Origin: Candidatus Latescibacterota bacterium
GTDB taxonomy: Bacteria > Latescibacterota > UBA2968 > UBA8231
Assembly: GCA_965200315.1 (NCBI GenBank)
Contig: OZ241362.1
Coordinates: 1,632,001-1,696,000, forward strand
Length of the DNA stretch: 64,000 bases
Direction: 5' to 3'
Shown piece after piece: positions 25,694 through 57,261 of this stretch. The position numbers and the translations under genes are program-made. The notes under the pieces were generated by a model, which saw only the letters and a list, made by a program, of their open reading frames with translations, did not search any database and had not been told where the DNA came from. How positions within the stretch are numbered: position 1 is the stretch's first letter; every line of letters starts with the position of its first letter.

Positions 25694-27325
25694 ATGCAAT
25701 CCCTCATCGCACCCATCCTCCTCGCCTTGCTCGGCTGTGCGCCCGACGAGGTGGTCCTCGCCAAGGTTGCAGATTCCGAGATAACCGAGGCCGAGTTGAA
25801 GCAATTCGTCGCCCGGTTGCCCAAACACCTGCACAGCGACGAGCAGGGCATTGCGGCGGACCGAGAACACCTCGCGTCCATGATCGACCAAGAACTGCTC
25901 CTGCTCGAGGCCAAAAGTCGGGGGCTGGACACCACCGCAGCACTAGCCCAGCAACTGGAGGATGCCGTACGGCGACGCCTGTCCACGCGCTACCAGCGCG
26001 AGGTGATCGCGCCGAAGATAGACATCGGCCCCCAAGATATCGAACGCGCCTTCCACGACATGGGCTTCAGCCGAGAGCGCCTGCTGCACCGCATCGTCGT
26101 CCGCGGAAGCCAACCGGACGCGCAGGCCGCACTCGCGCAGCTCGAGGCCGGAAGCGGGTTCACCGACCTAGCGCGAGCGCATTCTGCAAACGACAGCGGC
26201 GTGGTCGGCTGGATTGGGTTGACCCAGCTCAAGCACTTCCTGATTCCCCAGCGCGAGTTTCTCTCGCTCCCGGTCGGCAAACCAGCACTTCTTCGCCTTT
26301 CGCCCGGGGCCTACCAGATCATCCAATTCGCAGCCGACCGGGAGGCCCAGCTCCAAACCTACCAAGAGGAGATTGTCAAACTACTTCACCGGGAGCAGTG
26401 GTGGCGCCGCACCCAAGAGGAGGTCGAACTCCTCGGCCGAGCACACGGCGTCCAGTTCCATGCCGAAGGGGTGCAGGCGTTGATCCAACGCGTCGAGCAA
26501 CGCCAGAGCGAGTTGCCCGAAGAACAAGCGAGGCAACCCCTTTTCGCGTTTGCCGACGGAAGCGTTATTACAGCGGCCGACTTCTTGACCCGGCTGCGAA
26601 AACAGGGCCTTAACTCGGCCGTAAAAGACAGTGCGCGGATCGTCGCCATGGCCGAGCAAGAGCTCCTCCAGCCCCATCTGTTCAGCCGTGCAGCGCGTGA
26701 ACGCGAGTGGCACGAGGAGGAGGGCTTTATCGCTTGGCGATCCCACACCCACACCGGACTGCTGCTGGACCGTCTGATGCAGATTGAGGTGGAGGACCAC
26801 CTTTCTCTGGTGGAAGCCGATCTACAGGGCTACTACCAAGCCAACCGCGAGCGTTTCCGCACGGCCGAAACGGTCCGCATCGAGGAAGTACACGTGCCGG
26901 ACGAGGCCGCCGCCGTGCGGTTGGGCCACGAAATAGAGCGGGGCGCGGGGTTCGCCGAAATCCTTGAGCGCCCCGGCGTGGCCTCGCACGGCATCCACAA
27001 ACGGGGCGGCGAGATGATCCTCCAGCCCCACCTCGCGGGCAGTTTTCCAGAATTGGTCGAGACGGCATTCGCCGCGCAAGAGGGCGAATTAGTCGGCCCG
27101 GTTTATTTGGAGAAACCGGATAGTTATGCCATTTTCCGGGTCCTCGAGCGGCAGGAAAGTCGCATCAAATCCTTTGCAGAGGCCCGGCAGCCAGTCGAAT
27201 ACGCGCTGCGCTTACAGCAGCGAGACGACCTAATCTCCGGCTTCTTCCGGTCGCTGCGGGAGCAATACGCAGACCGCATCGTCATCTTCGCCGACCGCTT
27301 GGAGCAGCGGCACCGGGGGCCGTAA
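25694..27325 (+). CDS. Parvulin-type peptidyl-prolyl isomerase lipoprotein (PrsA/SurA-like)
   Basis: Lipobox LLGC, LAKV...IT..EL, two rotamase-like regions (GSGFTDLARAHS; GAGFAEI...GELVGPV). Confidence 0.8.
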   Translation: MQSLIAPILLALLGCAPDEVVLAKVADSEITEAELKQFVARLPKHLHSDEQGIAADREHLASMIDQELLLLEAKSRGLDTTAALAQQLEDAVRRRLSTRYQREVIAPKIDIGPQDIERAFHDMGFSRERLLHRIVVRGSQPDAQAALAQLEAGSGFTDLARAHSANDSGVVGWIGLTQLKHFLIPQREFLSLPVGKPALLRLSPGAYQIIQFAADREAQLQTYQEEIVKLLHREQWWRRTQEEVELLGRAHGVQFHAEGVQALIQRVEQRQSELPEEQARQPLFAFADGSVITAADFLTRLRKQGLNSAVKDSARIVAMAEQELLQPHLFSRAAREREWHEEEGFIAWRSHTHTGLLLDRLMQIEVEDHLSLVEADLQGYYQANRERFRTAETVRIEEVHVPDEAAAVRLGHEIERGAGFAEILERPGVASHGIHKRGGEMILQPHLAGSFPELVETAFAAQEGELVGPVYLEKPDSYAIFRVLERQESRIKSFAEARQPVEYALRLQQRDDLISGFFRSLREQYADRIVIFADRLEQRHRGP

Positions 27326-27356
27326 CCTCGCGCAGCCAGAGCGAGGGAGCCAGTTG

Positions 27357-30020: not shown

Positions 30021-30028
30021 AAACGCCC

Positions 30029-31996
30029 ATGCGGGACAACGCCTACCGGGCCGTCGGCGAGGCGGCCGCCATCTTTGCACTCGCTTTGTCAGCGCGGTGG
30101 CTGTACATCTACCAGACCGGCGACCATCCCCTGCGGGATATTCCCATCGGCACTGCCATCGTCCACGTCGAGCGAGCGGCTGGCGAAGCGGCCGATTTCG
30201 CGTCCCTGTACGACGCCTTTCTCCGGGTGGTCGGCCAGGCCTACCCGCTAGTCCGGGGGCTCCAAGCCGCGCTGGGGGCCGTCAACTGCGTCCTCGTCTG
30301 GTCGTTGGCGCGGGCCGCCTTCTCGCCCGGGGTAGCTGTCGCCGCCGGCCTAGCCGCTGCTGTCTACAGTCCGGCGATTTACTTTGCCGGTGAGCTCTTG
30401 CCGCCGGTCTTGGCAACGGGTCTAGTGCTGCTCAGTCTGATCGCCCTGTCGCAGGCCCTAACCAGCACCTCGCTCTTTTGGCTGCTGCCGGGCTTGCTGC
30501 TGGGGCTGGCCATGCTGGCCCAAGGGTGGGTGTCGCTGTTTGCCCTAATCACGCTCTTCTGGTTGCTGCACCGGCAAGACTGGGGCGCGGCTGGCTGGCT
30601 GGCCTTGGGGGTCGCCGCGCCGCTGCTGCCCGCCCTCCTGGGGTCGGCTTGGACGCCGGGATTTGCAGAGCTTGGGCTGGCCGAGGGCTTGGGCCGGGTC
30701 TACGCCCTCTGGCAGGGGACCGAGTTTCTGCCGGACCTCGATCCCTATTATGCACGCCAGCATTCCAGTCTGCTTGCGGCGTTGTTGTGGCAAGCCGGGC
30801 TGGCCTTTCCCTTCGGCTTGGTGGCCCCGCTGGCCCTAGTGGGCATTTTCTTTTGCCTCCGCGTCGAGCGCCAGCCGGTGGAGACCGCGCTGCTCCTGTT
30901 CGCCGGGTGTTTCACAGTGCAGGCCCTGCTCTTTTCTGCGGCCGGGGCGGGCGCACGGGCCCCGGCCGCCCCGGCCTTGCTGATCTTTGCCGTGGTCGGC
31001 GCGGGCACTCTGGGGGCCCGGCCACGCCGGCCGGCGCTAGCGGTCGGCGCGGCCGGCCTTCTCCTCGCCGTTGGCCTCAACGCGGGCGATACAGGCTCGG
31101 GCGGGCGCGGCCGCCAGCACTATTGGCTCGGCTATGGCTTTGAACAGCTCGGCCTGTGCGCCAATGCGGTCCGGGAGTACGAGCAGGCCCTTGTGCTGGA
31201 CGCCGGAAGCCTAGAGACCTACTACGCGCTGGCCGAGCACTACCGCGCCCAGAGCGACAACATCCGCGCCGGCGGCCTCTACGAGAGCCTGCTCCAGCGC
31301 TGGCCCGATCAAGACCGGGCACGCAAGGCCCTCGCCGAGGTGTACATGGCCTCTGGACGTACGCCCGAGGCAGCGAAATTGTACCGGGTGCTGGTCGACG
31401 CGGAACCCGCCTTACTGCCCGTGCTGGGCGAGGCGCTGGTCCGCAGCGGCGATGTGGAAGGAGGCATCAGGGCCTACCGCGAGGCCCTAAATGCCCTGCC
31501 GAGCAACGGCGCGGTCCGCAGCAAGCTGGCCTTGCTGTACGCGGCGACGGGCCAGCTCGCCGAGGCCGAGGCCGCCTACCGCATCCTGTTCGAGCAGGGG
31601 CATGTGGCCGAATTTGGTCCCCCGCTGGCCGAGGTGCTCATCCGCAGTCAGCGGGACGAGGATGCGGCGGCCGTGCTCGAGCGGGTCTTGCAGGTCGCGC
31701 CCGAATCGCCAGCGGCCCTAGCGCTGCGGGGCAAGCTACTGTTTGAGCAGGGCCACCACCGCCCAGCCGCTGTCCACTTTGAGCAGTTGCGTCGGCTTTG
31801 GCCGCAGGACTACCGCGTCTATTTCTTCCTAGCCAAGCTCTACGAGCACCTCGGCGAAGAGACCAAGGCCGACGACGCCCTCGCGCTCTACAGCCGCTAC
31901 CGGCGGCAGCAAGAGCGCGAGGAGGTGCAGGAGCACGTGCAGCGAGTGGGAGCCATGATGGCCGAGCAGTTGAAATCCCATCTGGAGCCGAGATAG
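30029..31996 (+). CDS. GT-C (PMT/GT39/GT83-like) membrane glycosyltransferase fused to TPRs
   Basis: Multi-TM N-terminus (AVYSPAIYFAGELL), GLAFPFGLV, C-terminal TPRs; paralog of 43556-45445. Confidence 0.72.
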   Translation: MRDNAYRAVGEAAAIFALALSARWLYIYQTGDHPLRDIPIGTAIVHVERAAGEAADFASLYDAFLRVVGQAYPLVRGLQAALGAVNCVLVWSLARAAFSPGVAVAAGLAAAVYSPAIYFAGELLPPVLATGLVLLSLIALSQALTSTSLFWLLPGLLLGLAMLAQGWVSLFALITLFWLLHRQDWGAAGWLALGVAAPLLPALLGSAWTPGFAELGLAEGLGRVYALWQGTEFLPDLDPYYARQHSSLLAALLWQAGLAFPFGLVAPLALVGIFFCLRVERQPVETALLLFAGCFTVQALLFSAAGAGARAPAAPALLIFAVVGAGTLGARPRRPALAVGAAGLLLAVGLNAGDTGSGGRGRQHYWLGYGFEQLGLCANAVREYEQALVLDAGSLETYYALAEHYRAQSDNIRAGGLYESLLQRWPDQDRARKALAEVYMASGRTPEAAKLYRVLVDAEPALLPVLGEALVRSGDVEGGIRAYREALNALPSNGAVRSKLALLYAATGQLAEAEAAYRILFEQGHVAEFGPPLAEVLIRSQRDEDAAAVLERVLQVAPESPAALALRGKLLFEQGHHRPAAVHFEQLRRLWPQDYRVYFFLAKLYEHLGEETKADDALALYSRYRRQQEREEVQEHVQRVGAMMAEQLKSHLEPR

Positions 31997-34041
31997 TGCC
32001 CAGACCGGTCCCGATTCTGCTGGCACTGGCCTGCGGGCTTTCCGCCACTGGCGCCCAAGAGATGCGGTTTGGCCAAGGCGGCAACATCACCTGGCAAGGA
32101 GCGGTCTCCGGGTTGGACGGCGTCGCCACCATCCAGCCCGAATTCCGCCCTTCCCTCACCCCGCACACCACCGCAATCGGCGTGGCTCCGGACGACCGGA
32201 TCGATCTGGTGCATTCCGACTATCCCGACGCCATTCTGCCCATCCGGCTAGACGAAGGCGAGAACCTGTCCGCGAGCCTAGTCGCCGCAAGCGGCAGCAT
32301 CGTCTCGGAAACGGCCGTGGAGATCAACAAAGACGAGCTGGCGGCGATCCTACAGGAGCTCCTTTCTCCCGAACCGACGGGCACGGCTTTCGAGCGCAAG
32401 GGTACCAATATCCTCGGCACTCTGCTGACCGTGGACCTCGGGGCCATCGTCGGCGTCAACCGCATCCGCTTCTTTCCGCGCAACACCTTTCTCCCCGCGC
32501 CGACCACGCCGTTCCAAAACGACTTTCTGCGAAACTTTGAATTGCGAATCCACGACGGCTTGCACCTGAACGAAGCCGGGTTGCCGGCCTTGGGGACTTG
32601 GGAGTCCTTCCTGACCGTTCATGGCAGCACCGAGCCGGTGACGGTCGTGGAAATTGACCCGCCCCGCTACCTGCGCTTTGTCCGCCTGCGCGCCTCCTCG
32701 TCCATACCCTTTGAGATTGAGAAGCTGCAAATTTTCGGCGAAGGCTTTTTCCCAGCCGCCCAGTATCTCTCGCCCATCGTCGATCTGGGCACCCCCAGCA
32801 ACTGGGGCCAGATTCGCTGGACGCGGAACGTGCTAGGCGCGGAGCCCCTCACCGATCTCATCGTCCGCACCCGCACCGGCAGCGACGACACCCCCTTTGT
32901 CTACAATCGCCGAGAGGTGGGCAACCCCAACGCCGAGGACATACCCTTCTCCATCGACAACCCAAGCGAACCTCTTTCCCGCGCCGAGTTCCTCGCCCTT
33001 CCCGTCAAGGGGACCGCCGCCGATCCCTACGAGCGCGGGTCTATACGGGACGATCTAGACCATTGGAGCCCGTGGTCGCCGCCCTACGCGGACGCGGACG
33101 GCTCCCGCAATATCTCCCCGGCACCCCGGACCTACATCCAGTTCCGGGTCGATTTCCTGAGCCGAGGGCTGCACTCGAGCCAGGTCCTCAACAGCGTCGC
33201 CTTGGAGTTCACTAGGCCGGCTCTGGCCGATGCCCTCATCGCCGAGGTCTTTCCGCGCACCGTGGAGGCCGCTCGAGCCATCGCCTTTGCGTATGCAGTG
33301 CGGGCCGAAATGGAGCGCACCGAACTTCAGGGCTTCAATGGTTTTGAACTATTCACGCAAGGACGGGTCGAGCGGATCACGCGCCTGGAGATCGTCTCCG
33401 CCGACGGCCAGCGCATCTTAGATCACACCTTTGAGACGCAGGACCGCGTCGCGGACGAGGGCCACGCAGCCATTACGTCCATCACCGATGCGGGGTTCGC
33501 GGTCCGCTTCCCCCGCATCGAAACCGACGGTACAATCCTCAAGATCCACTTCGTCAACCGCGTTTTGGCCTACAGTAGCGATTTCAGCGGGCGGGCACTG
33601 GTACAGGGAACCGATGCCTTTCAATGGGTGCAAGCCGGCAACGCGGCCGCGCTAGACGAGCGCGATGCCAGCTTCGATTCGGGCATCACCGTTTTGAGTC
33701 CGGCCGTGACCCGCAGCGGCCTGATCGGCAACTTCGCCCTTGACACCCCCGTTTTCACGCCCAACCGAGACGGCGTACGCGACGGCCTGCGGCTGCGCTT
33801 TGAGGTGCTCACGGTCGTGGGCGAAGCCGATATCGAGGTGGCCCTGTTCGATATTAGCGGCCGGCAACGAGCCACGATTTTCGCGCACCGAGGCGGCAAC
33901 GGCACCTACACCAGCCTCCACTGGGACGGCAGCAACGACCACGGCGAGCTGCTGCCTCCCGGGGTCTATCTCGTGCGGCTGGAGGTGGTCGGCGACGCCC
34001 GGTCCACCGCGGCCGTCCGCTCAGTGGGGATTGCGTATTAG
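31996..34041 (+). CDS. Secreted protein with C-terminal FlgD-Ig/type-B-CTD-like domain (paralog 1)
   Basis: GTG start overlaps the upstream stop; signal peptide; VFTPNRDG...FDISGR...WDGSNDHGELLPPGVYLVRL...SVGIAY. Confidence 0.8.
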   Translation: MPRPVPILLALACGLSATGAQEMRFGQGGNITWQGAVSGLDGVATIQPEFRPSLTPHTTAIGVAPDDRIDLVHSDYPDAILPIRLDEGENLSASLVAASGSIVSETAVEINKDELAAILQELLSPEPTGTAFERKGTNILGTLLTVDLGAIVGVNRIRFFPRNTFLPAPTTPFQNDFLRNFELRIHDGLHLNEAGLPALGTWESFLTVHGSTEPVTVVEIDPPRYLRFVRLRASSSIPFEIEKLQIFGEGFFPAAQYLSPIVDLGTPSNWGQIRWTRNVLGAEPLTDLIVRTRTGSDDTPFVYNRREVGNPNAEDIPFSIDNPSEPLSRAEFLALPVKGTAADPYERGSIRDDLDHWSPWSPPYADADGSRNISPAPRTYIQFRVDFLSRGLHSSQVLNSVALEFTRPALADALIAEVFPRTVEAARAIAFAYAVRAEMERTELQGFNGFELFTQGRVERITRLEIVSADGQRILDHTFETQDRVADEGHAAITSITDAGFAVRFPRIETDGTILKIHFVNRVLAYSSDFSGRALVQGTDAFQWVQAGNAAALDERDASFDSGITVLSPAVTRSGLIGNFALDTPVFTPNRDGVRDGLRLRFEVLTVVGEADIEVALFDISGRQRATIFAHRGGNGTYTSLHWDGSNDHGELLPPGVYLVRLEVVGDARSTAAVRSVGIAY

Positions 34042-34050
34042 CAGGCTCTT

Positions 34051-36774
34051 ATGGAGCATTCCACAAAAAAACGAGGCCCGGGCAGAAGGTCGCGGGCGAT
34101 ATTGCGAGTCGCTTGTATCTTGCTCGCGGCAGGGACGGCGGATGGTCAGATCGACTACGGCGGTCGCCTCGGCGAGGTGCAGGCCGGCCGCCGGAGCTTT
34201 GTACCGCATGGGCCCACGACCCTGATGGAGGCCATTGATCCGGCCGTGCGAAAATGGTACGTGCCGCAGGAGCTGTACTCCCAGTCCGGGTTATGGCAGT
34301 GGGAGACCACCAACTACGCCCGCGAGCCGTACCTGGGCTATGTCAACAACACCCTCGAAGGCGACTTCTTCTACGATCTTTACGGCAATCTGCTCACGCA
34401 GGGATGGCTGCTGTACAACACCAACCAGACGAACCCGGTGGAGCGCGGACACGTCGTGTTTGAATCTCGCAACCTGAGCGACTGGTTCTCCAACATCGCC
34501 ATTGCATCCGAGGAGAAGGGCCAGTATCGCTACGCCCTGACCGTCGGCCGCGATCTGCGCACGACCCTGACCCCGATGGTCTTTTCAAAACCGAGGTTCA
34601 ACGGGGTGCAGCTCGATCTCGCCACCGACAAGTACCAGGGCACCATCATCTATTCACAGGGCGGCATCGGCGGCCCGTCGGACGTGCGGCCCCGCACCGA
34701 CGTCACCACGATCATGGGCGGCCGCTTTGTGACTCAGGTGGGCGATTTCGTGGAAGTGGGGTTCCACCTGGCCAACGCACATCAGTCCAACAGCCTGAAC
34801 GACCGGCTGATGGACAACCTGCTCTCCGGCTCGCTACCGGAATCCAAGAACGAGCTGGTTTCCACCGTCGAGATCGTCCTGCGCGACGACTCGCCCGAAG
34901 ACCTAGCGAGCGGCGCGTCATACTTTCCAGCCGGATCCGATATCGTCATCACCTATCTCGACGGCACCAAAGATGTCGGCCAGGATATTCGCTTCGCGCC
35001 CGTGGTGCAGGGTGGCATTCCCGGCAGGGGTTTTCTCACCGCCATCGGCAACGACGAGATCCGCCTGACATACGATTTCACCGATCCCTCGTTTGTCGCC
35101 CGGGCCCGGGCGGACCGCAGCGAAATTGTCAAGGTCGAATTTCGCCTGACCCTGGCCAACGACTACCAGATATGGATGACCTCGGATCAGCAGACCAGCC
35201 GCCGCGGCGAGCCCGTGTTGCTGATCGTGGAGCGGGCGGAAGGCAATGTCAGCGACGGCTCCAACCTGCGCGTCGTGCAGTTCGAGTACGGTCTGCCCAC
35301 CGCCACTCACCTGATCGGCAGCAGCCTGAAGGTGAACGACGTGTGGGGCTTTGACCTCTACGGCGAATACGACCTGGGGTGGAGCTACCGCAAATACCCC
35401 AATCCGCTGGCCGAGAGCCACGAGGTCTCGTCCGGCGTCCGCGGCCAGCGCGCCCGGCCGGCCTATATGTTAAACCTGAGCAAGCAGGCCCATCCGTTGT
35501 TCTTCTTCGGCGAGGTCTACGCCGTCGACCCCCTGTACAATACCCAGACCTTTGTCACAGATGCAGACGGCACCATGTTCTACGATGAGGACCGGTTGAA
35601 GCTGGAGCTGGTAGACGACAACGACGATCAGGACCGCCTCCCCGACTTATTCCGCCTCGACACCGTAGCCCAAGGCACGGCCGATCCCTTTGCCGCAGAA
35701 TTGGGTGCTGTCGATTTCCGCGTTTTTCCCGGCTGGGATCGCAACAACGATTTCATCCCCGACTTCAACCAAAACGACAATCGGGCCCAACCCAATACCA
35801 TTCCCGACTACGAGGAGCCGTTTTTGCGGTTCGGCACCGACCGCCCCGAATTTCTGCTCGGAGTCGACATGAACCACAACTACTGGGTCGATCGCTTTGA
35901 GAACGACGAGGAGCCAGACTACCCCTACCGCCGAGATCGCCGGGGCTTCAACCTGTTCGGGGGAGTCCATCTGGCCCGGGATCTAGCGGTCAAAGTCGGC
36001 GCACTCCGCGAGGCATCAATAGCGTCCGCCCAGCGCAATCACAGCGACTACGCCGTGCTGGAATGGGATCGGACCTCGCCGCGGTGGGGGCGGTTGCGCC
36101 TCTTTCAAATGTTGGAATGGGTCCGCGACGACCTCGCCGATCCGCTGCTGCAATGGGCACCCAACAATTCCCTGGCCGGCGGACGGGTCGTGCGCTTGGC
36201 CGATCCGCTGCTGGCCCGGGACGCTTCGATCAACCGTTCCTTTGTCGGCCACCACTGGCAGGCGGGGCCTTGGCTGGTGCAGAGCAAGTTGAGTTTTCTC
36301 CGCTTTGCCCAGCGGCTAGACGAACAGGAAAGGCTGCGCTACGGGCTCGACGAGTCCGACTTCTTCTGCGGCCTCATCAACAAGGCCGCCTACCGCTATC
36401 GCTTGGGGCCAGTGGAACTCGTGCCGCGGTGGAAGAGCGAATACATAAACCAGAGTCGCAGTCTGTTCAGCGACGAGGAACGCACCACATTGACCGAGTT
36501 GTTTTCCGGCTTGGCGATCGTGCCGCTCTTGTCCGCCACCACCTTGCAAGGAGGGGTCGAATACCTTCTTTCTTGGGACTTGGACGGCCGGGCAGCCGAT
36601 TTCACCACCATGTCTTACGGCTTGCAGCTTACCAGCACCTCGGCCTATCAGGGCTACGAGGTGTGGCTCGTCACGCGGTTTGTGGTGGAGCGCAAAGATC
36701 CGCGCGGGGAGGATGCCTTCACCAGGGTGCAATCGTTCATCAGCATATACGCTGGACTGGAAAAGGCGCAATGA
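34051..36774 (+). CDS. Large secreted, probable outer-membrane hypothetical protein (paralog B)
   Basis: Shares IDPAVRKWYVPQELY, TTLTPMVFSKPRF, LRDDSPED, YGLPTATH, IPDYEE, PRWKSEYI and IYAGLE with paralog A. Confidence 0.8.
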   Translation: MEHSTKKRGPGRRSRAILRVACILLAAGTADGQIDYGGRLGEVQAGRRSFVPHGPTTLMEAIDPAVRKWYVPQELYSQSGLWQWETTNYAREPYLGYVNNTLEGDFFYDLYGNLLTQGWLLYNTNQTNPVERGHVVFESRNLSDWFSNIAIASEEKGQYRYALTVGRDLRTTLTPMVFSKPRFNGVQLDLATDKYQGTIIYSQGGIGGPSDVRPRTDVTTIMGGRFVTQVGDFVEVGFHLANAHQSNSLNDRLMDNLLSGSLPESKNELVSTVEIVLRDDSPEDLASGASYFPAGSDIVITYLDGTKDVGQDIRFAPVVQGGIPGRGFLTAIGNDEIRLTYDFTDPSFVARARADRSEIVKVEFRLTLANDYQIWMTSDQQTSRRGEPVLLIVERAEGNVSDGSNLRVVQFEYGLPTATHLIGSSLKVNDVWGFDLYGEYDLGWSYRKYPNPLAESHEVSSGVRGQRARPAYMLNLSKQAHPLFFFGEVYAVDPLYNTQTFVTDADGTMFYDEDRLKLELVDDNDDQDRLPDLFRLDTVAQGTADPFAAELGAVDFRVFPGWDRNNDFIPDFNQNDNRAQPNTIPDYEEPFLRFGTDRPEFLLGVDMNHNYWVDRFENDEEPDYPYRRDRRGFNLFGGVHLARDLAVKVGALREASIASAQRNHSDYAVLEWDRTSPRWGRLRLFQMLEWVRDDLADPLLQWAPNNSLAGGRVVRLADPLLARDASINRSFVGHHWQAGPWLVQSKLSFLRFAQRLDEQERLRYGLDESDFFCGLINKAAYRYRLGPVELVPRWKSEYINQSRSLFSDEERTTLTELFSGLAIVPLLSATTLQGGVEYLLSWDLDGRAADFTTMSYGLQLTSTSAYQGYEVWLVTRFVVERKDPRGEDAFTRVQSFISIYAGLEKAQ

Positions 36775-39860: not shown

Positions 39861-39866
39861 GGACTG

Positions 39867-42044: not shown

Positions 42045-42061
42045 GCGCAGCAAAATTTTAG

Positions 42062-42090
42062 TTGTATTGCACAAATTTAGTTCGTATCTT
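42062..42090 (+). promoter_or_regulatory. Putative sigma70 promoter
   Basis: TTGTAT-N17-TATCTT in an AT-rich gap, overlapped by an imperfect direct repeat AAATTT(T)AGTT(C)GTAT. Confidence 0.45.
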
Positions 42091-42166
42091 GTCAGCCTAG
42101 CTCAGGCACTAGGCAGATACTCATCTGCACTTTTCCACTAACCCGCACACGTAAGGAGAGGTAATC

Positions 42167-43084
42167 ATGCGCAAGATACAGATGATTGCCATTGGCGTAA
42201 TGGCAGTTTCGACGGCCGTTTGGGCCCACGACCCGCCGGGTGAGGTCCGCAACGCGGTCCAGTTCCCGCCCGGCCTCGAGCCCACGATCGATGGCGACTG
42301 TTCCGACTGGGCCGCTGTCCCGGGCGACCAGTACTGGATGTTCACCGAAGACCTCTATCCGCTGGGCGAATTCCATCCCACCGATGGACTCGGCCGCGGC
42401 GAGAACGATGCTAGTTCTTTCCAAACCACGTACCGGGTCGGCTGGAGTGCCAACACGGGCCAGCTTTACTACTGCAACTCCGTGTTTGACGACGTCCACA
42501 ACATCGACCGCCCCGATTCCTACGACTGGTACCTCGACGACTCGAACGAGTACTTCTTCACGACCCGGCACCTGTCCGAGCAGGAAGTAAGAGATCTGCT
42601 CGAAACGAATGTCGCCGCCTATTGGGGCTTCAACTATGCCCTGCCTAAGTTGCCCGACGGTGGCTTCTGGATGGTGATCGGCATGTGCATCGGCTGCGAA
42701 TGGCTGGACAACGGCGACAATGAGTGGTACACCCTAGTACACGGGTTCGAGGGCGAGGAGTTTGGTGAGAGCACCTATCACTACGAGCACCGGATCCAAC
42801 CGATCGACTCTTGGACTACCGGCTTGGGCGAAGACTTCGGGCCTAGTGACATTACCCCTGCAACGCTCAGCGAGGGGCAGACCATCCATATCACCTTTGG
42901 GACCAACGACGACGACGGCGTCGGGCGCGGTGGCCATTGGAGCAGCGGTAGCGGCCTTGTCGGAGGCACTTGGCTGGGCCAAGGCGACTACTTCCTAGAG
43001 CCGATCAACCCTTCCATTAACTGGCCCGATGTGGACACCTCGGTCGAGGCGGAGAGTTGGGGCCGGATCAAGGCTCAGTTCTAA
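42167..43084 (+). CDS. Secreted acidic protein, CBM9/DOMON-like, with C-terminal SWGxIK motif
   Basis: Strong AAGGAG RBS, signal peptide, PTIDGDCSDW, VGWS....LY....VFDD, NDDDG, tail TSVEAESWGRIKAQF. Confidence 0.75.
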   Translation: MRKIQMIAIGVMAVSTAVWAHDPPGEVRNAVQFPPGLEPTIDGDCSDWAAVPGDQYWMFTEDLYPLGEFHPTDGLGRGENDASSFQTTYRVGWSANTGQLYYCNSVFDDVHNIDRPDSYDWYLDDSNEYFFTTRHLSEQEVRDLLETNVAAYWGFNYALPKLPDGGFWMVIGMCIGCEWLDNGDNEWYTLVHGFEGEEFGESTYHYEHRIQPIDSWTTGLGEDFGPSDITPATLSEGQTIHITFGTNDDDGVGRGGHWSSGSGLVGGTWLGQGDYFLEPINPSINWPDVDTSVEAESWGRIKAQF

Positions 43085-43116
43085 GCCCCAGCTTAGCAGA
43101 GTCTCTTGCAAAACGC

Positions 43117-43158
43117 ACGCTGGACAGGTTCGTTAGCCTGTCCAGCGTTTTTTATTTT
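43117..43158 (+). terminator. Rho-independent terminator
   Basis: ACGCTGGACAGG-loop-CCTGTCCAGCGT followed by a T-tract. Confidence 0.85.
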
Positions 43159-43159
43159 A

Positions 43160-43337
43160 CTGCTGTTACGCAGCTATCGTCATGCCTGCGAAGGCAGGCA
43201 TCCAGAATGCCCGTTCGAGGCTCGTGCGCTGGACTGGATTCCCGCCCCGTGTCGGGGCACGGGGTGACGTTCTTGCGCGGGAAGGACGACGAGTGGGCTG
43301 CAAGCGGTAGATGCGGCATAAGGCTGCGTAACAGCAG
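43160..43337. mobile_element. MITE-like element, 178 bp, carrying REP-like palindromes
   Basis: Perfect 15-bp TIR CTGCTGTTACGCAGC / GCTGCGTAACAGCAG; TTATTTTA direct repeat at 43152-43159 and 43338-43345; internal GTCATGCCTGCGAAGGCAGGCATCCA...TGGATTCCCGC. Confidence 0.85.
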
Positions 43338-43345
43338 TTATTTTA

Positions 43346-43548
43346 CTGACGTTCCGCCTGAGCTTCTAGGTGTGGGATGCTTCGCTTCGCTCAGCATGAC
43401 AAACGTCGGCTCTTTCCCGTGCCCTGTCGAAGCCTCCCACACCCCATCTGCGTCCATCTGCGTCCATCTGCGGATCACCTTGTAAATGACTGAGCACCAC
43501 AACGCCGAGCCGAAGCCTCCCACACCCCATACCTGTGCGTAACGTCAG
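43346..43548. mobile_element. Second tandem MITE-like element, 203 bp
   Basis: Ends CTGACGTTCCGC / GCGTAACGTCAG (11/12); flanks TTATTTTA and TTATTCTA; contains GCTTCGCTTCGCTCAGCATGAC, CCATCTGCG x3 and GAAGCCTCCCACACCCCAT x2. Confidence 0.75.
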
Positions 43549-43555
43549 TTATTCT

Positions 43556-45445
43556 ATGGAACGCCGGCACCAAATCGGCTTGGCCCTGCTGACCCTGGCG
43601 GCCCTCACCCTGCGGTTGCTCTACGTACTTCAGGCCGACGACAACCCGCTCTTTGCCCATCCCATCGTCGACGCCCGAACCTACGTACGCACGGCCCTGC
43701 ACCTGTCCGCAGGCCAATGGCTGGGGCCCCCGCAGCCGTTTTGGCAGCCGCCGCTGTATCCTTACTTTCTCGGCGGTTTTTTCGCCCTGTTCGGCGAAAA
43801 TTACCACCTGCCCCGGCTCGTGCAGGCGGTCTCCGGGGCTGCGGTCTGCCTACTCGTTTTCGCCTTGGGCCGCCGGGCGTTCTCCGCTCCCGTAGTGGGC
43901 TGGCTCGCCGCGGGCGCGGCCGCGCTGTACGGCCCTTTCCTCTACTTCGAGGGAGAGCTGTTACCCGCCAGCTTGGCGGTGTTCCTCAACGCCCTAGCGC
44001 TGCTTGCCTTGCTGTGGGCCGCGGCCGGCGGTATCGGTCGCTGGCTGATCGCGGGCGTACTCCTCGGCGTGGCTGCGCTGACCGTCGCCAGCGTGCTCCT
44101 CTTCGTTCCCGTTGCCCTCCTGTGGGCGCGATACCAAGCGCGGGCCCCGGCCTCTGCGCTGGGCGCACTGATTCTCGGCCTTACCCTGGTCATCGCGCCG
44201 GTCACTTTGCGCAACCGCGTCGTCGGGGGCGAGTGGGTGCTGATCTCCTACAACGCCGGCATCAATTTCCACCTAGGCAACAATCCCGATTACGACCACA
44301 CCACGACCATCCGCCCCGGGCGTAGCTGGCGGGACCTGACCGACCTGCCTGAGCGGGAGGCCGGCATCACCGCCAAAGGGGCCTCCTCGGGATACTTTTT
44401 CGGCCGCTCTTATGAGTATGCCGCTGCTGATCCGGCAGGCTATGTCCTCCTGCAACTGCGCAAGTTCTATCTCTTCTGGCGCGGCGACGAGATCCCGCGC
44501 AACCTGAACCTCTATTACGCCCGCCACCAGTCCCCGCTGCTACAGGTGCTGTTGTGGATCCGCGGCCTTGCTTTTCCCTTCGGCCTCGTGGGGCCGCTGG
44601 CCCTGACCGGGCTGGTTCTCTACCTGCGGAATTCCCAAGCCCGCTCGCCAGCCGCAGACCTGCTGCTGCTGTTTGCGGCCGCCTACGCGCTAGCGGTAGT
44701 CCTGTTTTTCGTCACCGGACGCTATCGTCTCCCGGCCATTCCCCCCCTGCTCCTATTCGCCGGTTACGCACTGACGCGGTTGCGCTTGTTGCGGGGGCGG
44801 CAACTGGCCGGGAGTCTGGCCTTGCTCGCCGCGCTGGGGGTGGGCCTCAACGCCGGCACCCCGGCCATGGATATGGAGGGCGACAGCCAAGAGCACGTCT
44901 ATTTAGCATCGGCCTATGCCGCCGAGGGCTTGTTGGCCAATGCGCTCCGGCACTACGAGCAGGCACTGGAGCTGGAGCCAGCGCACGAGATCGCCCTCGA
45001 CGACGCCGGGGCCGTGCTGGCGCGACGCGGGAATTTCCGCCGGGCGGCGGCACACTGGGAGCGCCTGCTGCACCACTATCCCGACCGCACCGACGTCCGC
45101 TTTCGGCTGGCCGCGATGAGCCTCGACACCGGCGACTATGCGCGGGCAGAACGGCACTTTGAGCAGCTAACGACCGAAAAACCCGAGCGCACCGTGTTCC
45201 ACGCCCGCCTGGCCCAATCCCGCCGCTATCTGGGCGATCTCGACGGAGCGGCCACGGCCTACCGCCGCGCCCTCAAACTGGATCCACTGGCACTTCCACT
45301 GCATCGGCAACTGGCCCGGTTGGAGCTTGAGCGGGGCAACCAAGCCGCCGCCCTGCCACACGTGCGGGCACTGGAGCAACAGGCTGGTGAGGCCATCCAC
45401 CGCGAGGTGGAAGCATTGTACCGGCGCATGGGCAGGCACCCGTGA
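43556..45445 (+). CDS. GT-C (PMT/GT39/GT83-like) membrane glycosyltransferase fused to TPRs
   Basis: PIVDARTY, PFWQPPLYPYFLG, RN...ISYNAGINFHLGNNP, FFVTGRYRLP and C-terminal TPRs; alternative GTG start at 43535. Confidence 0.8.
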   Translation: MERRHQIGLALLTLAALTLRLLYVLQADDNPLFAHPIVDARTYVRTALHLSAGQWLGPPQPFWQPPLYPYFLGGFFALFGENYHLPRLVQAVSGAAVCLLVFALGRRAFSAPVVGWLAAGAAALYGPFLYFEGELLPASLAVFLNALALLALLWAAAGGIGRWLIAGVLLGVAALTVASVLLFVPVALLWARYQARAPASALGALILGLTLVIAPVTLRNRVVGGEWVLISYNAGINFHLGNNPDYDHTTTIRPGRSWRDLTDLPEREAGITAKGASSGYFFGRSYEYAAADPAGYVLLQLRKFYLFWRGDEIPRNLNLYYARHQSPLLQVLLWIRGLAFPFGLVGPLALTGLVLYLRNSQARSPAADLLLLFAAAYALAVVLFFVTGRYRLPAIPPLLLFAGYALTRLRLLRGRQLAGSLALLAALGVGLNAGTPAMDMEGDSQEHVYLASAYAAEGLLANALRHYEQALELEPAHEIALDDAGAVLARRGNFRRAAAHWERLLHHYPDRTDVRFRLAAMSLDTGDYARAERHFEQLTTEKPERTVFHARLAQSRRYLGDLDGAATAYRRALKLDPLALPLHRQLARLELERGNQAAALPHVRALEQQAGEAIHREVEALYRRMGRHP

Positions 45446-47346
45446 GCTCCTTGCACCCAACCTACCGCGCCCTGTTGCTGGGCACCCTCGGCTGCCTGCT
45501 GGTCGGGGCCGGTTCCCAGTACACCGACATGATGCTCAAGCGCTCCGGTTTCACCGGGTGGTACTACACGCCGGGTGCGCTGATCATCCTGTTCCTCGTA
45601 GTACTGGTCGCCAACCCGCTCGCGGGACTCATGCGTCGGCGATGGATGTTGACCCCGGCCGAACTGGCGCAGATGTACGTGATGTGGATCGTCGGCTCAG
45701 CAGTGGCCACCTGCGGCATTGTCTCCTATCTGCTGCCGATGCTGACCAGCGTCGTGTACTACGCTAGCCCAGAAAATAACTGGACCTACGAACTGCTGCC
45801 GTTGATCCCGGATTGGGCCATTCCCAGCAAGGAATTGGGCGAGGTCAAGGATTTCTACGAGGGCGGGGCCGACAGCGTGCCCTGGCGGATGTGGCTTCCC
45901 CCCCTGCTCCACTGGTTGCCTTTCGCCCTCTCCCTGCACATTGCGATGATCGCCATCATGGTCATCCTGCGAAGGCAATGGGTCCAGCACGAGCGCCTGA
46001 TCTTCCCCATGACCCAACTGCCGATCGCCATGATCCAAGACGGGCAATCCCCGGCCCTGATCAAACCGCTGTTCAAGAGTGGGCTGTTCTGGCTCGGATT
46101 CGCTATTCCCTTCTTCATCCAGAGTTACAACGGCGTCAACCGCCACTTTCCCTTCCTGCCCCAGATCGCTATCGGGGGGTATTACCTCTATTTCCTCGAA
46201 GACCAGCTGCGCCTGCGGATCGGCATCAATTTCATGATGATCGGCTTCACGTACCTAGTGCGGCGCGAAGTTTCGCTGGGATTTTGGGTCTTTGCGATCA
46301 TCAACTTCGCCCAAGAGGCAGTGATGATCGTCTTGGGGGTCGAGCGCCACGAACCCCTGTTCAGCCCCTTCTCCCGCGGGGGCACCCTTGCCTCGCACCA
46401 GGGGTTCGGGGCCTTTGTCGTGCTGGCCCTGTTCAGCCTGTGGAACGGCCGCGGCCACATCGCACAGGTGGTGAGACAGGCATTGGGGCGCGGCCAGCGC
46501 GTGGACGACAGCGACGAAATTCTCTCCTACCGGGCAGCCGTGCTGCTGCTGTTGGGTTGTGTGATCTTCATGGGCTTCTGGCTGTGGCAGACGGGCCTGC
46601 CAGCGTGGATCGCGGTGATCTTTCTCTTTCTGGCCTTCATCCTGTTTCTCGGCATCACCCGGATCATCTCCGAAGGGGGCCTGCCCTACCTGCTGGCGCC
46701 GATGGTAGCTTCCGACGTAGTCGTTGGCGGGATCGGCACCCGGGCCTTGGGAGCAACCGGCATCGCCGCCCTGTCTCTCACCTACATGTGGGCCAGCGAC
46801 ATCATCACCTTCGTCATGGTCTCCTGCGCCAACGGGCTCAAGGTGGTCGAAGAGCACGTCAAGCGGGGGCGGCGGTTCATCTTCCCGAGTCTGGTGGTGG
46901 CACTGATCGCGACCATGTGCAGTTCGGCTTGGGTGCTGCTGACCATTGCCTACGAGCACGGCGGGCACAACACCTCCCACTATTTCGCCGGGCAATCGCA
47001 GTATCCCTTTGAGGACGCCTTGGCCCGATTGCGCACCAGTGTGGGGCCTCAGTGGGAATACTGGGGATATATGGCCATCGGCGGTGGAATCATGGGCGGG
47101 CTGATAATGCTGCGCCAGCAATTCGTCTGGTGGCCTCTACACCCGATCGGCTTTCCCATCAGCCTAGTGATTCACAAGATGTTCTTCACGGTGCTGGTGG
47201 CTTGGCTTCTAAAGACCGCGATACTTCGCTACGGCGGTCCCAAGCAGTTCAGCCGGCTGCGGCCGTTTTTCCTCGGACTCATCCTCGGAGACTTCTTCCC
47301 GTTGGCCTTCCTGTTGCTGCTCGACCAGTTGGCGGCGCGGTTGTGA
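45442..47346 (+). CDS. Polytopic membrane protein, DUF6785/DUF6784-like (putative transporter)
   Basis: ELAQMYVM, YYASPENNW, ILRRQWVQHERLIFPM, WWPLHPIGF, ILRYGG...LRPFFLGLILG; many TM segments; family name recalled, not searched. Confidence 0.75.
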   Translation: MSSLHPTYRALLLGTLGCLLVGAGSQYTDMMLKRSGFTGWYYTPGALIILFLVVLVANPLAGLMRRRWMLTPAELAQMYVMWIVGSAVATCGIVSYLLPMLTSVVYYASPENNWTYELLPLIPDWAIPSKELGEVKDFYEGGADSVPWRMWLPPLLHWLPFALSLHIAMIAIMVILRRQWVQHERLIFPMTQLPIAMIQDGQSPALIKPLFKSGLFWLGFAIPFFIQSYNGVNRHFPFLPQIAIGGYYLYFLEDQLRLRIGINFMMIGFTYLVRREVSLGFWVFAIINFAQEAVMIVLGVERHEPLFSPFSRGGTLASHQGFGAFVVLALFSLWNGRGHIAQVVRQALGRGQRVDDSDEILSYRAAVLLLLGCVIFMGFWLWQTGLPAWIAVIFLFLAFILFLGITRIISEGGLPYLLAPMVASDVVVGGIGTRALGATGIAALSLTYMWASDIITFVMVSCANGLKVVEEHVKRGRRFIFPSLVVALIATMCSSAWVLLTIAYEHGGHNTSHYFAGQSQYPFEDALARLRTSVGPQWEYWGYMAIGGGIMGGLIMLRQQFVWWPLHPIGFPISLVIHKMFFTVLVAWLLKTAILRYGGPKQFSRLRPFFLGLILGDFFPLAFLLLLDQLAARL

Positions 47347-47356
47347 AGCAAGCGGG

Positions 47357-49351
47357 CTAGTAGTGGTGGGAGAAGACCGGGACTTTGTTGCCAGTGCCAC
47401 CGACCAGCAAGTCGACCACGAGCCAAAACGCGGAGCAGGTAATCTGCCCCAAGATAAAACCGAGAAAGAGGGGTCGCAGGGTGCGGTAGAGCCGGACCCC
47501 ACCGTACTTGAGGATGAAAGCCTTCAGGACCGATCCCAAGAAGATGCTGAACCAGCTCGCCGAGGTCATGTTGGTGGCGCTGACGGCAAAGCCGATATAG
47601 TGTACGGGCCACCACAGGAAATGGTGCCGGGCCCATATAAGAGCGGTCATGACCGCGCCGCCGATGCCGGTGAACAACAGCCGCGGGCCCATCACGTCGA
47701 AAGGCTCCAGCAGGCTGACGGGGTTCAGAATTTTGTAGGCGGTGAAGCTGGCGGGCCCCTTGGCCATGGCCTGATACGCCCACAGCTCCAGATTGATGCC
47801 ACCGTGCTCGTAGGCGAGGTAGATGACGAGCCAGACCGAGGAAAGCAGGCTGACGAGCATGGCCACGACCATCGCCCAGAACAGGGGAAGCCGGAGTGCT
47901 CCGACGCTCTCGGCCAACTTCATGCCGTTGATGGCCGAGGCCATGAGCAGGATGCGCAGATTGCCGGCCCAGCTAAAGGTCATGGCCAAGCTGAAGATGC
48001 CAGACGACGTGACGGAACCCGTGCCGAGAAAGTTGATGACGATGGGCTGGGACGTCATCTGGGGCCGGATGAAACCCAAGCCGCTCTCGGCGATGAGGCG
48101 GGCCATGAACAGAAAGACCCCAAACGCCACCAGCAGGAAGACGATGGTCACCCACAGCGGCACCCCCGACACGGTGAGCCAAACCGTCGCGTACAGGCTG
48201 CAGACGCCCAGCAGCAGGGCGGCCGCCCGGTAGGAAAGCATCTCGCCGCTGTCGTCAATGGCGTTGGGGCCGCCGGAACGCCAGACTTTGCGGGCGACCG
48301 CCTTGAGGTGATTGCGGGCCGTCCAGATGCCGTACGCAATGAGGGCCAGCATGGCACCCATGCCTTGGTGCGCCAGCATCAAGGTCCCCTCCATGAACTT
48401 CTCGATTTCCCCGGACAGCCGGTAGCCGATGGTGTACTGGAGTCCCATCTGCAGGTTGGCCAGCAAGTGGAACACCCAGAGGCTGGAGGCCAGCGCGAAG
48501 CTGAGGAAGTACGCCAAGCCGAGGACGGTAAAGCTGAGGAGGATTTCGAGGGCACCGAAGTCGCGCAAGGGTACGATGACAGTGTACAGGCTGACCTTGG
48601 GAATGACCGGAAAATAGAAATTCAGTCCGTGAGTACTCATCAAGCAGAACGGCACCAAGAAGCCAACCCACATGAGCGGACTCTTCAGGAAGGGGCCGAA
48701 GCGATCGCCGGGCCGGCCCTCTTCGGTCATCTGCAACGGCAGTTGCACGAGCGGGAAGAGCAGGCGCTCGTGGTCCACCCACTGCCGGCGCAGCAGCACC
48801 ATCAGCGCGATCATCATCAGGTATATGGCCACAATGAAGGTGAGCCAAGCCGCCAGCGGCACCACCCAAGCACTCCAAGGGATGGCCGCGCCTTCGGGCA
48901 GGCCCTCAAAGAAATAGGTGACGGCCTCGCGGTCATGAACCACCAGCCAGCGGTGAATGTGGGGGTGGACGAGCTCGGACCAGTCGTTCTCGGGCGTGGC
49001 GAAGTAGTAAACCGCCGGGAGCATCGGGATGAGGTTGGCCGAAAAGCCCCAAGTGGGAATGGTCGAGGCGATGATGAGCATCGCGTAGATCACGGCCAGT
49101 TCGCCGCGATTGAAGCCCCAAGGCCGATGTACCAGCTTGAGCAACGGATTGAGAAAAGCGATGAGGAGGAAGAAGACGGCCACGGCCCCAGCGGTGATGT
49201 AGTCCGAGGACATACCGGCCGTAGACAGGGCCAGCCGACAGTACGCAAAGCCGACGCTGATGAGCAGGGACAACAAGGCCCCGGCGACGATGCTGCGGGC
49301 AAAGCGCAACGGGGTCGCGCCAACGGCTTGTGGGATGCAGGAAGCGGCCAT
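47357..49351 (-). CDS. Polytopic membrane protein, DUF6785/DUF6784-like (paralog)
   Basis: ELAVIYAM, YYFATPENDW, LLRRQWVDHERLLFPL, WWPVHYIGF, ILKYGG...LRPLFLGFILG. Confidence 0.78.
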   Translation of the reverse strand: MAASCIPQAVGATPLRFARSIVAGALLSLLISVGFAYCRLALSTAGMSSDYITAGAVAVFFLLIAFLNPLLKLVHRPWGFNRGELAVIYAMLIIASTIPTWGFSANLIPMLPAVYYFATPENDWSELVHPHIHRWLVVHDREAVTYFFEGLPEGAAIPWSAWVVPLAAWLTFIVAIYLMMIALMVLLRRQWVDHERLLFPLVQLPLQMTEEGRPGDRFGPFLKSPLMWVGFLVPFCLMSTHGLNFYFPVIPKVSLYTVIVPLRDFGALEILLSFTVLGLAYFLSFALASSLWVFHLLANLQMGLQYTIGYRLSGEIEKFMEGTLMLAHQGMGAMLALIAYGIWTARNHLKAVARKVWRSGGPNAIDDSGEMLSYRAAALLLGVCSLYATVWLTVSGVPLWVTIVFLLVAFGVFLFMARLIAESGLGFIRPQMTSQPIVINFLGTGSVTSSGIFSLAMTFSWAGNLRILLMASAINGMKLAESVGALRLPLFWAMVVAMLVSLLSSVWLVIYLAYEHGGINLELWAYQAMAKGPASFTAYKILNPVSLLEPFDVMGPRLLFTGIGGAVMTALIWARHHFLWWPVHYIGFAVSATNMTSASWFSIFLGSVLKAFILKYGGVRLYRTLRPLFLGFILGQITCSAFWLVVDLLVGGTGNKVPVFSHHY

Positions 49352-57138: not shown

Positions 57139-57261
57139 GCAGCCGATAGTAGCGGCCAAAGTACGGCGCGTCAAGGGAAGGGCTGGCCACGGCGAGATTT
57201 GCCTGCCGCAGGCGTTGTACGTACTGTGCAGACACCATTGTCGTTAGAAAGGGAACCTACC

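Follow-up and report, generated by a model that had tools for sequence, protein, structure and literature searches.

Repeated gene modules combining predicted large outer-membrane barrels with secreted proteins bearing type IX-like tails in Candidatus Latescibacterota

The DNA considered here (the window) comprises 64,000 nucleotides of contig OZ241362.1 (positions 1,632,001 to 1,696,000, forward strand) in assembly GCA_965200315.1 of a Candidatus Latescibacterota bacterium. Positions 25694–49351 of the window carry a run of genes for a peptidyl-prolyl isomerase (PPIase), two large proteins (barrel A and barrel B), three secreted proteins with a particular C-terminal domain (CTD; proteins CTD1, CTD2 and CTD3), two proteins combining a GT-C glycosyltransferase part with tetratricopeptide repeats (TPR; GT-C-1 and GT-C-2), a small secreted protein designated WG, and two membrane proteins of family DUF6785. 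The barrels, the CTD proteins, the PPIase, the TPR protein (with or without the GT-C part) and WG are inherited as one unit. The most striking fact, missed by an earlier note made on this DNA from sequence alone, is that this module is repeated about 25-fold in one genome. The module could serve surface display dependent on a type IX secretion system (T9SS), in which lectin-like cargo with a retained tail is held by a giant barrel, aided by the PPIase and the TPR protein; this reading is tentative and is given a probability of about 0.45. Sediments, soils and sponges commonly harbour Latescibacterota, which are regarded as polymer degraders; to our knowledge, the phylum has no cultured member.

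The co-oriented reading frames of the run, with the small gaps and overlaps described in the earlier note, lie where that note placed them. From the PPIase through barrel A, GT-C-1, CTD1, barrel B and CTD2 to CTD3 the successive spacings are 28, 8, −1, 9, −4 and 6 bp. CTD3 and WG are separated by 122 bp, and WG and GT-C-2 by 450 bp; GT-C-2 shares 4 bp with the first DUF6785 gene, which faces the second in convergent orientation at a distance of 10 bp. Scans with Pfam and NCBIfam detected no secretion, pilus, ABC or SusC/D family inside the run, in agreement with the earlier note, and gave no match for barrel A, barrel B or WG.

Conservation of the run was assessed in a barrel scan with one genome per species, which found upwards of 600 stretches encoding a barrel; of these, the 77 best loci were retained, these being the closest relatives of barrel A, and distant paralogues may differ from them. 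The window proteins were scored against all open reading frames (ORFs) of the 77 loci, and the parts were counted in the 52 loci with full 10-kb flanks. Homologues of CTD2 were present in 51 of these, CTD1 and the TPR/GT-C protein in 50 each, the PPIase in 47, CTD3 in 46 and WG in 41. Every core part occurred together in 37 of the 52, which bears out the earlier expectation that the families co-occur in other genomes. The core genes have the orientation of the barrel in 356 of 376 cases. The usual order is [DUF6785]–PPIase–CTD2–barrel–TPR/GT-C–CTD1–CTD3–[second barrel]–WG, of which the window shows a permuted form. Recurrence at 77 loci in other genomes and at 25 in this one puts the arrangement far outside what chance would produce.

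By their labels, 58 of the 77 loci belong to Latescibacter* and 15 to Gemmatimonad*; one metagenome-assembled genome (MAG) of Woeseia and one of Bryobacterales are also represented. Three of the genomes labelled Gemmatimonad* were checked, and they proved to be assemblies placed by the phylum sample in the window's own genus or family. The Woeseia and Bryobacterales MAGs (three matches and one match, on short contigs) are probably mis-binned.

The genome of the window (5.36 Mb in a single contig, 94.7% complete, 7.8% contamination) contains 25 loci with at least one barrel and at least one CTD protein. These occupy 513 kb, or 9.6% of the genome, a length that includes genes lying between the core genes. 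Counted by best match among ORFs of at least 150 aa, the genome encodes 42 barrels, 116 proteins of the CTD classes, 26 PPIases, 18 WG proteins and 40 DUF6785 proteins. In one related genome the scoring of all 64 candidates gave 63 matches, some being pieces of a single gene.

The large proteins were described in the earlier note as resembling outer-membrane proteins, and the structural model agrees: it supports their assignment to outer-membrane barrels of an undescribed family. Barrels A and B are 52% identical over the full length. Relatives of barrel A number in the hundreds, have the same length and bear no family name, those with titles coming from Latescibacterota MAGs; a library of 1.84 billion representatives holds 1209 of them at E ≤ 1e-3 and 441 at E ≤ 1e-30. 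The AlphaFold2 model of barrel A (pLDDT 69, pTM 0.69) has approximately 24–26 long strands, an inserted beta domain at about 268–400 and a poorly modelled acidic loop rich in D and N (about 518–610, approximately 120 residues); an N-terminal segment (27–110) is conserved. Structure comparison returned generic barrels only. The Foldseek matches SlpA, MtrB, LptD and FimD had E values from 1e-9 to 1e-5 and a TM score of about 0.2, and VIA-align gave Z 10–14.5 with Omp85 and porins among the generic matches and no prominent family. The profile of the barrel family found no match among the sequences of the Protein Data Bank (PDB). The D/N-rich block is invariant even between barrel paralogues that are only 24% identical, and this suggests that it binds calcium and makes a contact shared by every copy. 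Three tandem barrel paralogues with 24–25% identity to barrel A were seen at another locus of this genome (L118:2557-11221, C1:3932271-3940950), and the acidic D/N block is kept in them. The C-terminus of the barrels is ...IYAGLE and lacks a final aromatic residue.

Membership in known barrel families was not found. Neither protein matches the PorP/SprF model TIGR03519 of NCBIfam, and their lengths are 888 and 907 aa versus about 300 aa for that family. Neither contains a Plug or TonB_dep_Rec domain (Pfam, E ≤ 0.01) of the kind found in TonB-dependent transporters and SusC. Prediction of a complex between barrel A (27–888) and the tail of CTD3 (612–725) scored 0.00 in two runs made without controls, a result that weighs neither way.

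The three CTD proteins are mutually paralogous. CTD1 and CTD3 are 27% identical over 600 aa (E 2e-39), and the tail is their best-conserved part, as expected for a signal read by a shared machinery. CTD2 shares the tail and a middle domain with CTD3, and in most other loci its homologue is the gene directly upstream of the barrel. Structure was modelled for CTD3 alone, the tails of CTD1 and CTD2 being placed by alignment to it. The AlphaFold2 model of CTD3 (pLDDT 70.8) consists of beta-sandwich domains in series, none with a catalytic fold, and the Pfam scan likewise showed no catalytic domain in the CTD proteins. According to VIA-align, residues 103–324 superpose on the carbohydrate-binding module CBM32 of 4a42_B (Z 13.4, root-mean-square deviation (rmsd) 2.4 Å, 123 aa), with 4zxe_A also reaching Z 13.4, and residues 618–725 superpose on the CTD of PorU (6za2_B; Z 12.8, rmsd 2.4 Å, 99 aa) and on that of PorZ (5m11_A; Z 10.9). 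F5_F8_type_C was seen in CTD2 only, at 24.2 bits versus a cut-off of 28.2.

CTDs of the T9SS are Ig-like 3+4 sandwiches, and those of PorU and PorZ are not cleaved, as given in a review (PMC11285876). At the sequence level the tails studied here carry an FTPNGDGxND-like motif. The CHU_C model gives 19.3 bits for CTD1 and 21.9 bits for CTD3 (cut-off 27), and FlgD_ig gives 29.8 bits for CTD3, above its cut-off of 27, and 25.8 bits for CTD2, below it. The C-terminus of PorU is matched by CTD1 (E 0.0015) and by CTD2 (E 6e-5). Against PDB sequences the profile of the CTD family matched with its tail only, the matches being the Ig domain of FlgD, the FN3 domain of streptococcal C5a-peptidase and, marginally, the CTD of PorU. 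Por_Secre_tail (PF18962), TIGR04183 and TIGR04131 had no match in CTD1–CTD3 at E ≤ 0.01. The earlier note had called the tails type-B; the T9SS fold was recovered on the model, and the type-B assignment was not (CHU_C at 19–22 bits versus 27, with TIGR04131 and TIGR04183 silent). Since the tails fall below the curated CTD models, they are best regarded, on the strength of the model, as a distinct FlgD_ig-like class of T9SS-type tail.

Core components of the T9SS, to which the earlier note had pointed, are encoded in the genome, namely SprA, PorU and PorV. SprA_N scores 80.5 bits in a frame of 2134 aa, and this SprA-like gene lies far from the module at C1:3735071. PorU is matched over its full length with 615 bits (cut-off 420), and PorV, directly adjacent to it, with 63 bits; the porU–porV pair (C1:1598778-1602835) is situated 30 kb upstream of the window. 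A PorU-CTD-like tail was found in 51 frames of the genome. A 1142-aa protein with ThuA, GSDH, PKD and CBM6 domains (L101:576-4001) has a classical type-A Por_Secre_tail; therefore, ordinary T9SS cargo also occurs in the genome. PorP/SprF, which the earlier note had invoked as a cognate barrel encoded nearby, was found neither there nor anywhere in the genome with TIGR03519, a model that was silent in all control genomes too. SusD (PF07980) had no match in the whole genome, and its control rang in B. thetaiotaomicron. The genome has 15 receptors with a Plug domain, all outside the module, versus 42 ORFs with the barrel as best match.

The barrel and PorU are largely distributed together. In 151 sampled genomes of the phylum the barrel was detected in 94 (E ≤ 1e-10), including all 63 other members of the window's family, and in none of the genomes of three sister families (0/30, 0/19 and 0/2); PorU exceeded its cut-off in 93. 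A hand tally of the same 151 genomes gave 88 with the barrel and full PorU, six with the barrel only, five with PorU only and 52 with neither. The six barrel-only genomes are all at most 89% complete. The three sister families (f2, f3 and f4), which are without a full PorU, have a frame of about 1900 aa matching only positions 5–737 of PorU, at approximately 260–280 bits, as at G039:C1:4187008-4189167; it may be a different peptidase-like protein.

The PPIase matches Rotamase_2 with 53.1 bits (cut-off 27) and SurA_N_3 with 17.6 bits, under the cut-off; its N-terminus (...LLALLGC) contains a lipobox. It is likely a module-specific periplasmic chaperone. The two GT-C proteins match PMT_2 with 28.0 bits (GT-C-1) and 34.8 bits (GT-C-2) at a cut-off of 26.1. 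In alignment they fall into two classes that differ in two motifs, VDA[RK]xY in the first loop and a loop NAGxNFxxGNN. VDA[RK]xY is taken as the conserved acidic residue of the first periplasmic loop, its catalytic role being drawn from GT-C enzymes in general. Both motifs occur in 23 of 26 proteins of the GT-C-2 class versus none of the 29 full-length proteins of the GT-C-1 class; in the window GT-C-1 is without the first-loop motif, and GT-C-2 has both.

The slot of GT-C-1 is occupied in 15 further loci by a protein of 311–479 aa which matches the TPR part of the query. These loci, together with the loss of the motif in the GT-C-1 class, indicate that the constant element of the module would be the TPR part and that the glycosylation step is apparently not constant. 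Judged by sequence, GT-C-1 is probably a TPR scaffold and not an active transferase. Plausible transfer of glycosyl groups is confined to the GT-C-2 class, and glycosylation by the GT-C protein beside barrel A is doubtful. The protein glycosylation suggested in the earlier note may hold for the former class, which keeps its motifs, and is less likely for the latter.

The WG protein belongs to a family of 45 relatives without a family name. WG of the window does not match CBM9_1; five of 34 relatives do so weakly (best E 0.0011), one paralogue reaches 2.7e-6, and one relative has a precomputed match to PF06452. The family profile has no match among PDB sequences. Its C-terminal end, ...IKAQF, looks like the final strand of an outer-membrane protein. 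The gap upstream of WG is AT-rich, with a strong ribosome-binding site (AAGGAGAGG), and a strong terminator (43117–43148, a 14-bp stem and a T run) lies directly 3' of its stop codon. Direct repeats were noted in the gap between WG and GT-C-2 (43430–43475), consisting of CATCTGCGTC-like units, with cctcccacacccca occurring twice.

Four metatranscriptomic runs of one study, picked by barrel and CTD sequence and not by WG, hold the operon, and their contigs cover all 30 bins of the window. In these runs WG is found on a contig of its own (from 42120 or 42186 to 43262), which has a depth of 159–261, and the contigs of the operon have depths of about 2–17. The depth of WG is approximately 15–20 times that of its neighbours, contig depth being a poor measure of expression and RNA libraries being able to contain DNA. 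These values hint at WG as the most abundant transcript by a wide margin. Many relatives of WG lie on WG-only contigs of about 1.0–1.3 kb, which fits this hint, and the WG transcript is probably abundant and monocistronic.

Both convergent membrane proteins are full-length members of the Pfam families DUF6785 (PF20581; 392 bits for the first and 408 bits for the second) and DUF6784 (PF20580; 89 and 94 bits), and the second is 36% identical to the first. They are probable permeases, as judged from their sequences. In ESM Atlas the first (45442–47346) has only DUF6785 clusters as neighbours, and in one of these clusters OPT is present in 11% of members; the OPT family itself (PF03169) had no match in 11 DUF6785 proteins at E ≤ 5, and the DUF6785 profile found no relative among PDB sequences. 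A DUF6785 gene lies within 10 kb of the barrel in 20 of the 52 fully flanked loci and in 15 of the 25 loci of this genome, where many DUF6785 genes also stand alone. Association with the barrel module is common without being obligatory.

Accessory genes were surveyed in 40 of 46 planned pieces, corresponding to 21 of this genome's 24 remaining loci; 148 non-core ORFs that passed a filter on GC content by codon position were compared with Pfam. FG-GAP_3/UnbV_ASPIC proteins account for 21 of the 148, a few of these being halves of one gene, and PhyH dioxygenases for eight; extra TPR proteins are recurrent as well. The FG-GAP_3/UnbV_ASPIC proteins are about 550 aa long, usually adjoin a TPR protein and lie beside the more diverged module copies (L087–L126). 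Solute-binding proteins and ABC permeases, GFO_IDH_MocA, AP_endonuc_2 and Amidohydro_2 are also represented, and so are peptidases (M20, M28 and S15), a sulfatase and a 3-keto-disaccharide hydrolase (3keto-disac_hyd). The flanking genes differ from locus to locus and are mostly catabolic or involved in transport.

Under the display reading, the CTD proteins would cross the inner membrane by Sec and the outer membrane via SprA, using the CTD. The CTD would be kept, and the cognate barrel of 24–26 strands would hold the protein on the cell surface, in a manner resembling PorV–PorU, PorQ–PorZ and SprF–SprB. The lipoprotein PPIase and the TPR protein could act as a dedicated periplasmic chaperone and scaffold for both barrel and cargo. 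The invariant acidic loop of the barrel would bind calcium and contact something common to all copies, and the diverged copies could equip the cell with a range of lectin-like binders, each suited to other extracellular polymers. WG could be an abundant soluble or surface partner, and the neighbouring DUF6785 permeases may import captured or released material.

We take PorV to be the partner of PorU, and PorQ that of PorZ, in Porphyromonas gingivalis. It is these attachment systems that the module resembles: the best superpositions of the CTD3 tail are with the CTDs of PorU and PorZ, and the genome has a PorU–PorV pair. The barrels here differ from PorV in having about 890 aa, 24–26 strands and no family, the PorV model scoring only on other genes, and there are about 25 dedicated sets of barrel and cargo per genome here versus one attachment complex. 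That a barrel might hold a surface protein through a CTD that is kept is a notion taken from the PorU/PorZ attachment system, as set out in the review (PMC11285876).

A second likeness is to the type-B CTD proteins with PorP/SprF, exemplified by sprCDBF of Flavobacterium johnsoniae: in both cases cargo and its own barrel are adjacent and co-inherited, and the tails are FTPNGDGxND-like with weak CHU_C scores. Unlike that system, the module has tails below the CHU_C cut-off and without TIGR04131, a barrel about three times larger, and three cargo paralogues accompanied by a PPIase, a TPR protein and WG.

Several points weigh against the display reading. The physical link between barrel and cargo is one that we infer only. 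The 24–26-strand size fits a channel better than a mere anchor, as far as the model goes, and the known anchoring barrels (PorV, PorQ and PorP/SprF) are presumably several times smaller. The tails score below the curated models of both type-A (PF18962/TIGR04183) and type-B (PF13585/TIGR04131) CTDs, and a CBM32-like fold is no proof of sugar binding. The PorL/PorM motor has no match in the genome (TIGR03513, TIGR03517, PF12081), which says little: TIGR03513 and TIGR03517 were silent in all control genomes, and PF12081 gave a match in two, below cut-off. As to the distribution, five genomes have PorU without the barrel, and 51 of the 52 double-negative genomes belong to three related families, so the correlation reflects few independent events. 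Neither the GT-C domains nor the very high WG signal fits clearly into the display model.

The main rival is a counterpart of the polysaccharide utilization loci (PULs) of Bacteroidota, in which the barrel would be a TonB-independent uptake channel and the CTD proteins and WG would be surface binders in SusD or glycan-binding roles; the T9SS would place the binders, and oligomers would pass to the DUF6785 permeases and to locus-specific catabolic enzymes. It is unlikely, if the strongest of the alternatives. As with SusC/SusD, there are dozens of paralogous loci with a large barrel, surface proteins of a carbohydrate-binding fold and varied catabolic neighbours; 25 loci with 9.6% of the genome is a PUL-like multiplicity, and the barrels, of channel size at 24–26 strands, outnumber the Plug receptors (42 versus 15) in a genome that lacks SusD. 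The CBM32 fold of the cargo, the weak CBM9_1 matches of WG relatives, the proximity of DUF6785 at 20 of 52 loci and at 15 of 25 own-genome loci, the one ESM Atlas cluster of DUF6785 with 11% OPT members, and the variable flanks with catabolic and uptake genes (GFO_IDH_MocA, sulfatase, peptidases, PhyH and ABC permeases) point the same way.

Unlike SusC, however, the barrels are devoid of Plug and TonB-dependent receptor domains, match no TonB-box-like family and show no energy coupling, and the binders are T9SS-tailed and not lipoproteins. No glycoside hydrolase or polysaccharide lyase family of Pfam was found among the 148 accessory ORFs of the 21 other loci, and their lists contain no PUL-type regulator, either sigma/anti-sigma or hybrid two-component. 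Many DUF6785 genes are solitary, and the dedicated PPIase and the TPR/GT-C proteins would be without a role. The capture of glycans feeding DUF6785, proposed in the earlier note, keeps the binding fold and the frequent permease on its side, and the absence of glycoside hydrolases and of plug or TonB-type domains counts against it. In its fullest form the proposal would make the module the PUL analogue of Latescibacterota: lectins exported by SprA would sit on a calcium-loop barrel, itself a TonB-free importer leading to OPT-like DUF6785 permeases, with about 25 copies for one substrate each, as the main feeding route of the phylum. We consider this improbable to a similar degree.

A machine of the chaperone-usher or two-partner type could also be envisaged, in which the barrel would be an assembly pore, the PPIase its chaperone, WG the major subunit of a fibre or layer and the CTD proteins the minor or tip binders; the chances of this are slim. 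The behaviour of WG would suit a major subunit, given its own contig at about 15–20-fold depth in the four RNA-library runs of one study, its own strong terminator, the many relatives alone on contigs of about 1.0–1.3 kb and its beta-strand-like end ...IKAQF, set beside a barrel ending ...IYAGLE without the terminal aromatic residue. Contig depth is, on the other side, a poor measure of expression, and WG is absent from 11 of the 52 fully flanked loci. FimD and PapC, which are of similar size and strand number, are among the Foldseek matches (E 1e-6 to 1e-4), and the module contains a dedicated gene for a chaperone-like periplasmic protein.

More broadly, barrel size, strand number and best Foldseek matches (E 3e-9 to 1e-5) recall the ushers together with MtrB, LptD and SlpA of Deinococcus. 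The TM score to all of these is only about 0.2, without relation of sequence families: no usher, PapD or TpsB/POTRA family was matched in Pfam, the chaperone is a parvulin lipoprotein and not PapD-like, and cytochromes and LPS-transport genes are missing here. Equally slim are the chances of the associated proposal that the FlgD-Ig-like tail serves docking between subunits or between subunit and barrel and not the T9SS, since the tails match the CTDs of PorU and PorZ best and 88 of the 94 barrel genomes have full PorU.

Least probable of all is that the paralogous modules are sets of SprB-like alternative adhesins, or a variable coat, for attachment to particles, hosts (sponges) or cells and not for nutrient capture. 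A secreted multi-domain protein with a T9SS-like tail beside its own barrel does recall sprCDBF of F. johnsoniae; the cargo is non-enzymatic, the paralogues are many and diverged, and the integrin-like repeats of FG-GAP/UnbV_ASPIC occur in 21 of 148 accessory ORFs. Against it, the models of the gliding proteins GldL and GldM have no match (controls silent or sub-cut-off), the proteins are short for gliding adhesins (about 680–1030 aa), and the neighbours are mostly catabolic or transport genes.

The features of the run are listed in Table 1. The start of CTD1 was set at the GTG at 31996, the first start codon giving a signal peptide, in an ORF that opens at 31798; for CTD2 the ATG with a signal peptide at 36771 was chosen, its ORF opening at 36063.

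Table 1. Genes of the run in the window (positions counted from the first nucleotide of the window).
Feature	Position	Strand	Remarks
SurA-like parvulin PPIase lipoprotein, 543 aa	25694..27325	+	Rotamase_2 match, lipobox
Barrel A, 888 aa	27354..30020 (start 27354/27357)	+	No family match; barrel in AlphaFold2 model
GT-C (PMT_2)/TPR protein 1 (GT-C-1), 655 aa	30029..31996	+	PMT_2 and many TPR families
CTD protein 1 (CTD1), ~681 aa	31996..34041	+	Signal peptide, discoidin-like and Ig-like domains, FlgD_ig/T9SS-like CTD ending AY
Barrel B, 907 aa	34051..36774	+	Paralogue of barrel A; no family match
CTD protein 2 (CTD2), 1029 aa	36771..39860	+	Signal peptide, F5/8-type-C-like domain, further beta domains, T9SS-like CTD
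CTD protein 3 (CTD3), 725 aa	39867..42044	+	CBM32/discoidin-like ~103–324, Ig-like ~440–610, T9SS-type CTD 618–725
WG protein, 305 aa	42167..43084	+	Secreted, possibly CBM9-like; conserved C-terminus ...SWGRIKAQF
GT-C (PMT_2)/TPR protein 2 (GT-C-2), 636 aa	43535..45445	+	PMT_2 and TPR; both class motifs intact
DUF6785/DUF6784 polytopic inner-membrane protein, 634 aa	45442..47346	+	PF20581, PF20580
Second DUF6785/DUF6784 protein, 664 aa	47357..49351	-	PF20581, PF20580; convergent with the first

The flanks of the run consist of housekeeping or catabolic genes. The upstream BamD-like, TPR and cytidylyltransferase genes and the downstream GFO/UxuA genes were rejected as unlinked, being missing from the conserved set. 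Two flanking proteins are family-less: one of 676 aa (23420–25450, minus strand) is kept upstream in the three closest loci (L002, L003 and L072) and has three paralogue matches in the genome, and one of 679 aa (50593–52632, plus strand) has eight. Further downstream, UxuA-like or xylose-isomerase-like TIM-barrel genes (53845–55404, minus strand, and 57199–58233, plus strand) are accompanied by an M19 dipeptidase and a zinc alcohol dehydrogenase.

Literature searches on DUF6785, on Latescibacter with type IX secretion and on broader terms, whose scope ended short of supplementary files, returned no paper on the module. Term searches within the texts of PMC12993501 and PMC4454575 gave no mention of such a module, and in the accessible portion of the review PMC11285876 Latescibacterota is not named among the T9SS-bearing phyla of the Fibrobacterota–Chlorobiota–Bacteroidota (FCB) group.

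The finding would extend type IX secretion to Latescibacterota and would add a new class of cargo tail together with a partner barrel that is both new and very large. The barrel, the CBM32-like cargo and WG, which looks highly expressed, are concrete targets for structural work, glycan arrays and metaproteomics. A module of largely family-less proteins accounts for about a tenth of these genomes, with barrels that outnumber the TonB-dependent receptors; therefore, it is probably central to how these cells meet their surroundings.

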